Part shown: piece by piece, positions 23,823 through 31,562 of the stretch
Numbering within the stretch: position 1 is the first letter of the stretch
Layout: each line of letters begins with the position of its first letter
Origin: Minisyncoccota bacterium
GTDB taxonomy: Bacteria; Patescibacteriota; Minisyncoccia; UBA6257; GWB1-50-10
Assembly: GCA_020059585.1 (NCBI GenBank)
Contig: JAGVBU010000002.1
Location: forward strand, 27,566-91,565
Length of the DNA: 64,000 nt
Direction: 5' to 3'
Notes under the pieces: generated by a model
What the model saw: the letters and a program-made list of their open reading frames with translations, nothing else
Database searches by the model: none
What the model was told of the DNA's origin: nothing
Made by a program: the position numbers and the translations under genes

Positions 23823-23895
23823 GGGTGCCTAACGGGAATTGAACCCGTGTCATCCGCTCCACAGGCGGATGCTCTACCATTGAGCTATAGGCACC
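23823..23895 (-). tRNA. tRNA-His (anticodon GUG).
   Basis: Hand-folded cloverleaf. Anticodon loop CTGTGGA. Encoded extra 5' G(-1) pairing with discriminator C73, the tRNA-His identity element. T-arm ACGGG-TTCAATT-CCCGT. No encoded CCA. Confidence 0.85.
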
Positions 23896-23898
23896 ATA

Positions 23899-24384
23899 TT
23901 ACAAATCCTCTCCAAAATGATGGACGAGGATATGGCAATTATGGCATAGCCATACAAGATTCTCAACCTTATTATTTTTTCGATTATTATCTTTATGATG
24001 AACGGCTAAAATCCTCTTATCAGACACTTTACACAGCACGCATACCATTGGAATATTGTGCCTCTTTATTACATTTCTATAGGCATATTCTCCCGTCTTC
24101 CAGTTTGAATGTTTCTTTCCAACAAATTCCCCATTCCTCCACCTCGTTTGACATGATTTACTGCAAAAATATTTTTTACTTTTCGAATGTTGTAGCGCTC
24201 GTTGAGTTTTATATATTTCTTTCTTACAAACAGAACACTTCACAAAATTTCCATTTTTCTGTGCTTCGTGCTGGCATTTTCTAGAACAATATTTCCCAAA
24301 ACCTCTTTTCAACCAAAACGGTTTTGCATAAAATTCTTTTTTACAAATTCTACATAAAACGTCCGGCATATGTTCATAATACAA
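23899..24384 (-). CDS. HNH endonuclease with N-terminal zinc ribbons (homing-endonuclease-like).
   Basis: Three CxxC..C pairs, then the HNH core HHKDNNRKNNKVENLVWLCHNCH. The gene is AT-rich. Its stop codon lies 3 nt upstream of tRNA-His. Confidence 0.8.
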   Translation of the reverse strand: MYYEHMPDVLCRICKKEFYAKPFWLKRGFGKYCSRKCQHEAQKNGNFVKCSVCKKEIYKTQRALQHSKSKKYFCSKSCQTRWRNGEFVGKKHSNWKTGEYAYRNVIKRHNIPMVCVLCKVSDKRILAVHHKDNNRKNNKVENLVWLCHNCHILVHHFGEDL

Positions 24385-28068: not shown

Positions 28069-28618
28069 GGCCCTTGCGCGCAAAACAATTTTTTGCCCTC
28101 GCCTCTCAGTCGCGCCGACGCGCTCTTTCGGGCTGGGCACCGCCTCGCGTGCATGTCTTCTGACACGCACTGGCTCCGGCGTACAAAATAGAACGCGAGA
28201 CAAATAATTGTCTCGCTTATGCGGCTTACGCCGCATTCTATTTTGTACCCCCGGCAGGAAAAAGGAATCGCCTACAAGTTCCTCCTCGTCGTCACTCGTC
28301 GGACTCGCAGGCCGCCGCTCGCCATGCATTCTGCTGAATGCATATGGCTGCGCGCTTCGATTCCTGCCCGCAAAACAATTGTTTTGCTTGGGGATACGAT
28401 AAAACACACAAAATTGTGTGTTTTATTTTCGTACCCCCGGCAGGAATCGGCTCCGACTAAAATTTTCACCGTCGTGAAAATTTTGTCTAGCCGCCGCCTC
28501 GCTCCCACGCCTACTGGCGTGGGTCCCGCTCCGGCGTTCGATTCCGCACGCAAGCAAATACTTTTGCTTGCTCGGGGGAAACAAATCCCGCCAGTCTATA
28601 GACTGGCGGGATGATTTG
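28069..28618. repeat. Tandem array of three roughly 186-bp palindrome-rich units. The second and third units each begin (in tRNA sense) with a 15-19 nt copy of the tRNA-Arg 3' end.
   Basis: gtacccccggcagga occurs at 28245, 28431 and 28618, with a period of 186-187 bp. Each unit holds 3-4 perfect hairpins. Confidence 0.75.
28578..28612 (-). terminator. Rho-independent terminator of tRNA-Arg.
   Basis: Minus strand, directly after the tRNA 3' end: cccgccagtc-tata-gactggcggg followed by atttgttt. Confidence 0.7.
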
Positions 28619-30095: not shown

Positions 30096-30169
30096 CGCGG
30101 GGTAGAGCAGTCCGGTAGCTCGCAAGGCTCATAACCTTGAGGTCGTTGGTTCGAATCCAACCCCCGCAA
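30096..30169 (+). tRNA. tRNA-Met (anticodon CAU); initiator-like C1·A72 acceptor mismatch.
   Basis: Acceptor CGCGGGG/CCCCGCA. D-arm GAGC-AGTCCGGTA-GCTC. Anticodon stem CAAGG/CCTTG with loop CTCATAA. T-arm GTTGG-TTCGAAT-CCAAC. A hairpin terminator follows at 30176-30210. Confidence 0.8.
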
Positions 30170-30256
30170 CAATAATCACACGCCTCTCAAGAAATTGAGA
30201 GGCGTGTGTTGTATAATTGACGCAAAACAGCGATTCGCATACCATAGAAAATATAT

Positions 30257-30330
30257 GCCAGGGTAGCTCAATCGGTTAGAGCACAGCACTCATAAAGCTG
30301 AGGTTGCGAGTTCGATTCTCGCCCCTGGTA
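30257..30330 (+). tRNA. Second CAU-anticodon tRNA (elongator Met or lysidine-modified tRNA-Ile2).
   Basis: Acceptor GCCAGGG/CCCTGGT (G·U). D-arm GCTC-AATCGGTTA-GAGC. Anticodon loop CTCATAA. T-arm GCGAG-TTCGATT-CTCGC. Confidence 0.75.
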
Positions 30331-30378
30331 CAAAAAGAACCTCTGTTTTGGTATAATATAGCCACAGGGCTGTTTTTT

Positions 30379-31059
30379 ATGGCAAAAACAAAAGAAAAAA
30401 ATGTAGCCACTTCCCTAAGAAGAAAAGGGATGAGTATAAAGGATATTTCGAAGACTCTTCATGTTTCAAGGAGTTCGGTGAGTGTGTGGTGTTCCAACAT
30501 ATTACTCACAAAGAAGCAAGAGGAATCTTTAAGAGAAAAGATGATATCAGCAGGACACAAGGGAAGATTATTGGGGGCAGAAAAGCAAAAAAAGAAGAGG
30601 GAAGAAATTATACAAAAATATAAAGAAGAGGGGTTAAAAAATATACAAGATATAGATTCTAGAGATCTTTTAATGATTGGGATAGGACTCTATCTTGGTG
30701 AGGGAAATAAAACGGGAAATAAGTTTCAATTCACTAATTCAAATCCTGATATAATTTGTATCATGCTTTTATGGCTTACGAAAATATTTAAAATAAAGAA
30801 AAGCCACATTGTGCTCAACGTCCTTATTAATGGAATCCACGTAAAGAGAGAGCTACGCGTTCGTCGTTTTTGGTCACAAATCACGAATATACCAGAAAAA
30901 CAATTCAATAAAACAATTTTTATAAAATCCAAGAACAAAAAAATGTATGAAAATTTTTCAAATCATTTCGGCACTCTCGTGATCAGGGTGAGAAAAAGTT
31001 CTCTCCTCCAATATAAGATTTTAGGACTTTGTCATGCATCAATAAAAAATACGATATGA
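30379..31059 (+). CDS. AT-rich ORF with an N-terminal helix-turn-helix and a LAGLIDADG-like motif; a possible homing-endonuclease-type selfish gene.
   Basis: HTH-like MSIKDISKTLHVSRSSVSVW. The motif LLMIGIGLYLGEGNKTG resembles the LAGLIDADG (L-x-G-L-Y-L-G-D-G) class. Strongly AT- and Lys-rich relative to its flanks. Confidence 0.5.
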   Translation: MAKTKEKNVATSLRRKGMSIKDISKTLHVSRSSVSVWCSNILLTKKQEESLREKMISAGHKGRLLGAEKQKKKREEIIQKYKEEGLKNIQDIDSRDLLMIGIGLYLGEGNKTGNKFQFTNSNPDIICIMLLWLTKIFKIKKSHIVLNVLINGIHVKRELRVRRFWSQITNIPEKQFNKTIFIKSKNKKMYENFSNHFGTLVIRVRKSSLLQYKILGLCHASIKNTI

Positions 31060-31110
31060 AATCGTATTGCAAAACAGAATAAGCGTTGATACACTAAATT
31101 CGCTATGTTT

Positions 31111-31184
31111 GCGGGCGTAGCTCAGCTGGTTAGAGCGATTGCCTGTCACGCAATAGGTCGCCGGTTCGAGTCCGGTCGCCCGCG
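31111..31184 (+). tRNA. tRNA-Asp (anticodon GUC).
   Basis: Acceptor GCGGGCG/CGCCCGC. D-arm GCTC-AGCTGGTTA-GAGC. Anticodon stem ATTGC/GCAAT with loop CTGTCAC. T-arm GCCGG-TTCGAGT-CCGGT. Discriminator G. Confidence 0.85.
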
Positions 31185-31188
31185 CAAG

Positions 31189-31219
31189 AAAAACATCCAT
31201 AATACGGATGTTTTTTGTT
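31189..31219 (+). terminator. Rho-independent terminator of tRNA-Asp.
   Basis: aaaaacatccataatacggatgttttttgtt. Confidence 0.7.
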
Positions 31220-31312
31220 ACCGGACTTGAACGGGAAAGGGCGGTGGGAAAACGGGAGTTTTCCCAAGGCGGATAACATAAACCGATGGGTTTGTGAGAG
31301 TTTTGAAAAAAC

Positions 31313-31372
31313 GACGTTCGATTCCGTCGCCCGCGCAAAAAAAAACATCCATTATGTGGATGTTTTTTGTTA
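31313..31372 (+). repeat. Direct duplicate of the last 23 nt of tRNA-Asp (T-loop plus acceptor 3' strand), followed by a second copy of its terminator.
   Basis: cgttcgattccgtcgcccgcgca, then aaaaacatccattatgtggatgttttttgttacc. Compare 31162-31222. Confidence 0.7.
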
Positions 31373-31562
31373 CCGTATTTGAACGAGGAGTGAATTCTTG
31401 TTTGAAAAAAGCAGAAAATCGAGTAAAGTCATAGATATGAATCCCGTTAGAAACCGCGATCGCGGGGACATATAAGCACTCTATTAAACGAACGTATATG
31501 TCAGTCGAAACAAAAACAAATCACATAATGGATCGTTTGATTGCGGTCTGTTTCTAAATGGG

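Follow-up and report, generated by a model that had tools for sequence, protein, structure and literature searches.

What is a strongly AT-rich open reading frame (ORF) doing between two tRNA genes on a patescibacterial chromosome? This question was raised by a stretch of 64,000 nucleotides from a Minisyncoccota bacterium (contig JAGVBU010000002.1 of assembly GCA_020059585.1, positions 27,566 to 91,565 of the forward strand), here called the window, in which an ORF for 226 residues at 30379-31059 lies between a tRNA gene with the anticodon CAU and the gene for tRNA-Asp. A reading of the letters alone (the sequence-only reading) had assigned to its product a helix-turn-helix (HTH) and a LAGLIDADG-like motif, and had taken the tRNA spacer for a landing site of selfish homing-endonuclease genes. 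The analysis presented here points to a predicted LAGLIDADG-type nuclease domain joined to an HTH, in an unannotated sub-family linked to tRNA genes, and we put at about 0.55 the probability that the ORF is the gene of a free-standing homing endonuclease, of the LAGLIDADG type, resident in tRNA clusters. The genes of the locus are as follows.

30096-30170 (+), initiator tRNA-fMet (CAU) without an intron, called by ARAGORN and Rfam, with a C1xA72 mismatch and a GG/CC anticodon stem.
30257-30331 (+), non-initiator tRNA-CAU resembling elongator tRNA-Met, called by ARAGORN and Rfam, with a fully paired acceptor stem.
30379-31059 including the stop codon (+), gene of a 226-residue protein with an HTH and a LAGLIDADG fold, identified by ORF call, homologues, profile and structural model.
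31111-31185 (+), tRNA-Asp (GTC), called by ARAGORN and Rfam.

A real gene between two tRNA genes

The ORF is a real gene and not a chance ORF, as judged by its 43 close homologues of equal length and by a ratio of nonsynonymous to synonymous substitution rates (dN/dS) of 0.10 against an orthologue of 74% identity, a ratio that shows purifying selection. An alternative, longer reading from a TTG at 30304 would overlap the tRNA-CAU gene; the start was placed at 30379 because all 42 aligned homologues begin at the methionine of MAK... The ORF occupies most of the 779 bp that separate the non-initiator tRNA-CAU from tRNA-Asp, as had been noticed from the letters, and its reported richness in AT and lysine was borne out. 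Its GC content is 0.327 (0.323 at third codon positions, GC3) compared to 0.485 and 0.521 for the other 32 long ORFs, which makes it the lowest in GC of the 33 long ORFs of the window, and its product is 14.6% lysine with a basic net charge. The tRNA-CAU at 30257-30331 has as its top Escherichia coli match a tRNA annotated as tRNA-Met, with 80% identity over positions 7-65, and this non-initiator tRNA-CAU is the tRNA type that the ORF family accompanies.

No paralogue of the ORF was found in the window. An Rfam scan of the window returned six tRNAs only, with nothing in the conserved element 3' of tRNA-Asp, and an nhmmer search with a model of the fMet introns described below gave no match in the window. 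With Rfam and nhmmer showing no intron there, the possibility that the ORF is intron-encoded was dropped.

An N-terminal HTH and a predicted LAGLIDADG-type nuclease domain

The protein was modelled by AlphaFold2 (AF2) with the family alignment. In the model, which had a predicted local distance difference test (pLDDT) score of 90.9, residues 4-37 form a three-helix HTH, 45-88 a long helix and 94-225 a mixed alpha/beta domain; the nuclease fold for which the sequence-only reading had proposed to look was present. An extra helix at residues 152-169, which carries the conserved N151, H154, R157 and W165, lies inside the core. The parts of the protein map to the window as listed.

30388-30489 (+), N-terminal three-helix HTH, residues 4-37, from the AF2 model.
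30511-30642 (+), long connecting helix, residues 45-88, AF2 pLDDT 84-94.
30646-31056 (+), C-terminal LAGLIDADG-fold domain, residues 90-226.
30676-30711 (+), LAGLIDADG-type motif IGIGLYLGEGNK, residues 100-111, from the profile alignment.
30700-30702 and 30709-30711 (+), codons of the putative catalytic residues E108 and K111, from alignment to I-DmoI.

When a profile built from 42 family members was compared to the Protein Data Bank (PDB), it matched the second LAGLIDADG motif of I-DmoI at E=1.6e-4. A single-sequence phmmer search of the PDB found I-DmoI at E~0.1 only, and the family profile was needed for significance. In the profile alignment GLYLGEGNK is paired with GLYVAEGDK of I-DmoI, such that the family pattern LY(L/W)GEGxK falls on LYVAEGDK and E108 and K111 correspond to E117 and K120. 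Catalysis by I-DmoI requires E117, and the basic residue K120 is believed to stabilise its transition state (PMC3384342); by this alignment E108 would serve as a metal ligand and K111 as the neighbouring catalytic lysine. Residue conservation was scored in 162 diverse family sequences. Position 108 was acidic in 161 (glutamate in 157, aspartate in 4), G109 was kept in 160, position 111 was lysine in 150 and arginine in 8 (158 of 162 in total), and N120 and W165 were nearly invariant. The motif IGIGLYLGEGNK, first noticed from the letters, is real and conserved on the combined evidence of profile and fold.

The N-terminal HTH had also been called from the letters, and the three helices of the AF2 model uphold it. 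In curated libraries the HTH was the only part of the protein to be matched, below threshold for the window protein and consistently across the family. A Pfam search, suggested by the sequence-only reading as a check, failed to detect the nuclease domain: LAGLIDADG_1, LAGLIDADG_2 and LAGLIDADG_3 gave no match to the window protein even at E<=10, and LAGLIDADG models were absent among the 25 most-matched Pfam families listed for 42 family members.

Each chain carries one LAGLIDADG motif, as in the homodimeric LAGLIDADG enzymes of the I-CreI/I-CeuI type, and the enzyme should therefore act as a homodimer, in which the ORF product would pair with a second copy to form a two-metal active site. Natural fusions occur in the family, one with an HTH followed by two LAGLIDADG domains (P0177) and three with the HTH-LAGLIDADG unit in duplicate (P0136, P0141 and P0158); an AF2 model of P0177 from its one sequence alone had a pLDDT of 37. 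The fold of the ORF protein matches those of I-DmoI, E-DreI, I-Tsp061I, I-CeuI and I-Vdi141I. Compared to known LAGLIDADG homing endonucleases, however, it escapes the three Pfam models, adds an N-terminal HTH, a connector helix of 45 residues and the helix at 152-169, and is encoded by a free-standing gene outside any intron or intein, with an activity that is predicted. From alignment and model we describe it as a putative LAGLIDADG-type nuclease domain with an HTH, representing a sub-family that has gone unannotated. What is new here is the combination of a single-motif LAGLIDADG domain with glutamate in its motif, an HTH at the N terminus, escape from the LAGLIDADG models of Pfam and specialisation for the tRNA clusters of Patescibacteria and large viral contigs.

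The family is large and linked to tRNA-Met

A profile search of 1.8 billion cluster representatives recovered 843 family clusters at E<=1e-30 and 4085 at E<=1e-10. At least 511 relatives were present in species-representative genomes, nearly all of them labelled Patescibacteria or Candidate Phyla Radiation (CPR) and a few labelled Gammaproteobacteria, Bdellovibrionales or Bathyarchaeia. Source annotations name the family members as regulators or hypothetical proteins (in one case as a 'predicted transcriptional regulator'), and no description of the family was found in the literature searched.

Family members occur almost exclusively within tRNA gene clusters, either of Patescibacteria or of large viral contigs in IMG/VR. 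The genomic niche was counted in 80 species-level loci (L014-L093). In 67 of these a same-strand non-initiator tRNA-CAU gene starts within 100 bp of the ORF stop codon, with a median spacing of -10 nt, meaning that the two overlap and the reading frame ends inside the tRNA gene; tRNA-Asp is usually next. An initiator tRNA lies just upstream of the ORF in 53 of the 80 loci, where it is intact in 27 and split by a group I intron in 26, and the intact copies are mostly on the strand of the ORF. These linkages give a canonical layout of fMet, ORF, Met, Asp. In the window and its nearer relatives (L001, L004 and L009, with 74%, 58% and 52% identity) the ORF is found one spacer further along, in the order fMet, Met, ORF, Asp in the window, L001 and L004 and with ProRS intervening in L009, and this slot is common to the window and relatives down to 52-58% identity. 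In 84 of 90 loci compared, the ORF exceeded its neighbours in AT content; the mean difference was -7.4 GC points (-10 at GC3).

Several family proteins end in what is translated tRNA sequence (for example ...GFEP...). Were such an ORF co-transcribed with its tRNA, 5' processing of the tRNA would remove the stop codon. More speculatively, with most family ORFs terminating within the tRNA gene that follows, RNase P could strip off the stop codon in this way and so hold the nuclease at a low, non-toxic level.

More distant relatives (15 proteins of 23-32% identity; L175-L189) were found on viral contigs of 25-497 kb in IMG/VR, with matching architecture and a GEG or GDG motif. All 15 lie inside tRNA arrays, beside tRNAs of many identities, and their 3' ends abut or overlap a tRNA gene. 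A tblastn search of GenBank phages with a viral relative gave no match.

Presence, absence and replacement at one tRNA spacer

Close relatives of the window were located by anchoring on the neighbouring PheS gene. In three loci (L095, L096 and L097) PheS is 83-85% identical to that of the window and 93.5-95% identical among the three. All keep the fMet, Met order of the tRNA genes, with tRNA-Asp kept as well in L096 and L097, and no homologue of the ORF was found in any of them. The Met-Asp spacer of L096 is an empty site of 64 bp, with the tRNA-Asp promoter kept on its right side. That of L097 spans 1.5 kb and contains a small membrane-protein ORF and a canonical LAGLIDADG gene with two motifs (1402-2200, - strand), which passes the LAGLIDADG_3 and LAGLIDADG_1 cutoffs of Pfam, is interrupted by a stop codon that leaves ORFs of 88 and 168 residues, and overlaps the 5' end of tRNA-Asp with its 3' end. 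In a further locus, L156, a canonical gene with an HTH and LAGLIDADG_3 (47 bits) directly follows tRNA-Met; an opposite-strand group I intron hit lies beside it, from which no spliced tRNA could be reconstructed. By hhalign the family and the L156 gene aligned in the same order over both HTH and motif (E=0.003). The canonical genes of L097 and L156 share with the ORF the slot after the non-initiator tRNA-CAU or before tRNA-Asp and the order of HTH then LAGLIDADG, but they have two motifs with aspartate and are recognised by Pfam, whereas the ORF has one motif with glutamate.

A similar polymorphism was seen around a second relative. L004 has the ORF, L153 (PheS 79% identical to that of L004) has a different gene in the slot, and L119 (PheS 81.5% identical to that of L004) has no gene there. 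Presence of the gene in the window and L001, an empty site in L096 and a different gene in L097 are what was found on checking for presence/absence differences as the sequence-only reading had advised, and the idea of the tRNA spacer as a landing site stands on the empty site of L096 and the canonical LAGLIDADG genes of L097 and L156. That reading needs correction as to age: this is an old, widespread, tRNA-Met-linked lineage and not a recent, sporadic insertion. Because the ORF is also present in the same slot of the outgroup L009, it looks ancestral to the sub-clade and lost or replaced in L095-L097; the window copy, on these comparisons, looks long-resident.

L001 carries a second family paralogue (1811-2452, - strand; 213 residues, 43% identity), just downstream of an intron-split fMet gene and on its strand, which is absent from the window.

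Other variable genes were noted in the same neighbourhoods. A GIY-YIG-domain gene lies beside PheS in L001 (68-454, - strand) with no counterpart in the window. An acidic ORF of 150-165 residues, with no Pfam family, lies between fMet and Met in L095 (339-836), L096 (3218-3673) and L097 (3038-3496), on the - strand in all three; it is absent from the window, where this spacer is 86 bp, and makes a second presence/absence polymorphism of the cluster. At 2810-2953 of L097, a GC-rich insert of about 125 bp is bordered by a 17-bp direct repeat (ATTCCCACCTCCGCTAC) of the 3' end of tRNA-Met.

Group I introns in the neighbouring tRNA genes

In 26 of the 80 species loci a group I intron was found within 400 bp upstream of the ORF, on the opposite strand in 25 of the 26. 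Splicing in silico restored an initiator tRNA with the intron at position 33/34 for 22 intron hits. These fMet introns are 181-306 nt long and match Rfam RF00028 at 55-76 bits (for example L081 2672-2922 and L001 2654-2846, both - strand), and the split tRNA-fMet genes are missed by ARAGORN. The fMet gene of the window differs at 2 positions from the spliced exons of L001 and has an identical anticodon arm.

The intron status of fMet was tied to orientation, split copies being mostly opposite to the ORF and intact copies mostly on its strand. Weaker hits resembling group I introns were detected downstream of the ORF and tRNA-Met in L059 (3943-4124), L070 (3893-4057) and L072 (3891-4015), all on the + strand. 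They occupy the expected place of tRNA-Asp, which went undetected in these loci, and in L070 the flanks resemble tRNA-Asp exons; these hits are probably the intron-split tRNA-Asp genes of PMC13011429. According to that survey, tRNA group I introns of Patescibacteria mostly have no endonuclease gene of their own, self-splice in vitro without protein and, where endonuclease-less, were judged largely immobile (PMC13011429).

Weighing the explanations

By analogy with SegB of phage T4, the family most likely acts as selfish homing endonucleases. SegB is a free-standing GIY-YIG homing endonuclease in a tRNA cluster, with a 27-bp site that includes the T-psi-C motif GGTTCRANTCC (PMC2330249). As with the ORF, its gene lies between tRNA genes, relatives have no gene at the homologous region and the tRNA genes offer a conserved target, making it the closest analogue for the probable mode of action. 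The two differ in that GIY-YIG is unrelated to LAGLIDADG, that cleavage, site and homing of SegB come from experiment and those of the ORF product from analogy, and that SegB is a phage gene whereas the ORF sits in patescibacterial chromosomes, though relatives occur on viral contigs. LAGLIDADG endonucleases of CPR rRNA insertions and introns (PMC11270868, as cited in PMC13011429) share with the ORF the phylum, the superfamily and the association with structural RNA, but those of the rRNA insertions sit inside rRNA genes and the ORF between tRNA genes, a likeness drawn from their description in the citing paper and not from sequence. In the proposed course of events, a chain whose HTH (residues 4-37) is joined by the helix of about 45 residues to the single LAGLIDADG domain (90-226) would pair through that domain with a second copy. 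On chromosomes without the gene, HTH and LAGLIDADG saddle would then recognise a long site within or next to a conserved tRNA gene. The dimer would cut this site, and recombinational repair from the gene-bearing copy would transfer the gene along with flanking tRNA DNA. The copy in the window would be a long-standing resident, driven by an extended -10 promoter of its own. The homing-endonuclease reading is supported by the identity of the nuclease domain, the kept catalytic residues, the fusions, the tRNA niche, the signature of mobility, the composition and the precedent of SegB. The analysis establishes the domain's identity, the kept catalytic residues, the link to tRNA genes, the polymorphism of the spacer and the purifying selection, while dimer formation, cleavage of DNA, its target and homing are inferred.

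Several findings weigh against it, and most of these would suit a host gene. Divergence of the ORF roughly tracks that of PheS, with identities to the window (ORF/PheS) of 74/83, 58/60, 56/58 and 43/50; its position is conserved across deep lineages of Patescibacteria; and its GC content follows that of the host (r=0.85). Conserved position, tracking of PheS and of host GC, and a dN/dS of 0.10 would be no less expected of a host gene passed on by vertical descent. Over 637 locus pairs, the identity of the ORF and that of its flanking proteins were correlated at r=0.32, a noisy relation, and the sole hint of incongruence between host and gene was that L004 and L009 rank oppositely by ORF and by PheS identity. 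In addition, the nuclease domain went unrecognised by Pfam, NCBIfam, PHROGs and PADLOC, which assigned the protein to no nuclease, defence or regulator family, and a Foldseek search with the whole model gave no significant matches. The sequence-only reading had held that assignment to a regulator family with no nuclease fold, together with conservation in relatives, would tell against it: the position did prove conserved in many relatives, but no regulator family was found and the nuclease fold is present. A host function of this kind would be that of a domesticated DNA-binding protein like WhiA, whose HTH would recognise an operator close to the tRNA promoters, whose LAGLIDADG domain would do no more than dimerise or contact other proteins, and which would regulate the fMet/Met/Asp cluster or its own gene. 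WhiA is made of the same building blocks, an HTH and the LAGLIDADG fold, and the position kept in 67 of 80 species loci, the strong purifying selection (dN/dS 0.10), the tracking of host GC and of PheS, and the label of 'predicted transcriptional regulator' given by one source all fit such a role. In WhiA (DUF199), however, a pair of LAGLIDADG domains precedes the C-terminal HTH, and both the acidic and the basic catalytic residues have been lost (PMC3384342), whereas this family has a single domain with the HTH at its N terminus and keeps E/D108 and K111 in about 98-99% of members (acidic in 161 of 162, lysine or arginine in 158 of 162). No WhiA model of Pfam matches, the gene is missing or replaced at the same spacer in the closest relatives, viral-contig relatives sit in arrays beside tRNAs of many identities, and the AT content of the ORF is systematically above that of its host. 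On balance we regard a WhiA-like regulator as unlikely, with a minor but genuine chance of being correct, and the divergent transcription factor that the sequence-only reading had named as an alternative keeps some probability.

LAGLIDADG proteins are classical partners of group I introns, and the ORF product might act in trans on the introns of neighbouring tRNA genes, either as a maturase or as a 'collaborative homing' endonuclease that cuts intron-less tRNA-fMet or tRNA-Asp at the insertion site. Such a role would suit the upstream intron of 26 of the 80 loci, among them L001, which has the closest relative of the window ORF, as well as the intron-like hits at the expected place of tRNA-Asp in some loci and the scarcity of endonuclease genes in patescibacterial tRNA introns (PMC13011429). 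The ORF-less loci examined have an intron-less fMet (Fisher p=0.017, with samples that are not independent). The window has the ORF, however, and its flanking tRNAs are without introns; since its intron-less fMet has the anticodon arm of the spliced L001 gene, an enzyme that targeted the insertion site would attack the chromosome encoding it. The family is moreover linked most tightly to the non-initiator tRNA-CAU and not to fMet, the introns already published need no protein to splice themselves in vitro (PMC13011429), and the viral relatives have no such intron nearby, which together make an intron partner improbable. Still further from likelihood is a transposase of a small insertion element with an HTH like that of IS630, IS30 or IS3. 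The first 85 or so residues match the N termini of IS630, IS21 and IS3 weakly (NCBIfam, 21.7 bits against a cutoff of 100), there are weak matches to HTH structures of Tc3, insertion sequences and resolvases, and a 14-nt imperfect inverted repeat (I9) flanks the ORF. This short repeat coincides in part with promoter elements and is not kept in L001, the C-terminal domain has the LAGLIDADG fold and no DDE or other transposase catalytic domain, and the family keeps to one specific genomic niche instead of being scattered. With no catalytic domain and no conserved terminal repeats, a transposon or insertion element was rejected.

Small elements around the ORF and other observations

The following small elements were recorded around the ORF.

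30177-30208 (no strand assigned), perfect 14-bp hairpin between the two CAU tRNA genes, terminator-like (inverted repeat I4, 100% complementary).
30349-30357 (+), extended -10-like element TGgTATAAT, 21 nt 5' of the ATG, read from the sequence.
30358-30378 (+), small hairpin and T-run just 5' of the start codon (terminator-like site at 30358-30373, then TTTTT).
31048-31068 (+), perfect 8-bp hairpin AATACGAT-atgaa-ATCGTATT, read from the sequence.
31067-31095 (+), tRNA-Asp promoter-like element TTGCAA-17-TACACT, read from the sequence.

The element at 30349-30357 is kept as TG(G/A)TATAAT in alignments with L001 and L004 and is probably the promoter of the ORF; it was missed by a consensus promoter scan because it has no -35 element. 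A palindrome is found in L001 at the position matching the hairpin at 30358-30378. The hairpin at 31048-31068 spans the stop codon of the ORF and touches the -35 of the tRNA-Asp promoter, and was not kept in L001. The tRNA-Asp promoter-like element is conserved, with invariant columns in an alignment of the window, L001, L096 and L004. Since it lies downstream of the ORF cassette, the inserted segment would be that between the 3' end of tRNA-Met and this promoter.

Beyond the cassette, a segment made up of the tRNA-Asp 3' end, the terminator hairpin and some 20 nt further on recurs 151-152 bp downstream (31175-31385). The duplicated unit is about 60 nt at roughly 90% identity, and the 90 nt or so between the copies fold moderately (z -2.4). 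The whole element of about 190 bp is kept in L001 and L096 and has no Rfam match; it could be the footprint of an integration into the tRNA 3' end or a novel small RNA.

A second putative homing-type nuclease gene, of the HNH type, had been proposed at tRNA-His. An ORF for a Cys-rich protein of 161 residues (23899-24384, - strand) does stop 5 bp before the same-strand tRNA-His gene (23823-23894, - strand) and has an HNH-like motif (HHKDNNRKNN...CHNCH), but its score against Pfam HNH_3 is 20.7 bits, under the cutoff of 24.8. Between the gene for a ZIP-type transporter and tRNA-Arg lies a GC-rich stretch (0.52-0.53) of about 550 bp (28070-28618), with no convincing ORF and no Rfam match, part of which is kept in L096.

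Implications

Pfam, NCBIfam, PHROGs and PADLOC see in these proteins an HTH only, and a large family has in this way been overlooked by curated libraries. If its members were regulators instead of nucleases, the LAGLIDADG fold would have been domesticated a second time, independently of WhiA. If they are active homing endonucleases, they would be the LAGLIDADG counterpart of T4 SegB and would provide compact, HTH-assisted, single-motif LAGLIDADG scaffolds with new specificities.

A wider proposal, which we put forward as speculation and consider doubtful, is that the family forms an endonuclease class dedicated to tRNA genes, common to Patescibacteria and viral contigs, and that it also supplies in trans, by 'collaborative homing', the homing enzyme for the endonuclease-less introns of fMet (at 33/34) and Asp. 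Were this so, the tRNA introns would be mobile after all, and the enzymes would also help to shuffle tRNA genes within and between tRNA arrays. If the family is active in homing, tRNA group I introns that have no endonuclease of their own and that were judged largely immobile (PMC13011429) would have a possible way to spread, and tRNA arrays on large viral contigs may owe part of their turnover to these enzymes. Such activity would likewise explain the variability of the fMet/Met/Asp cluster among closely related Patescibacteria.

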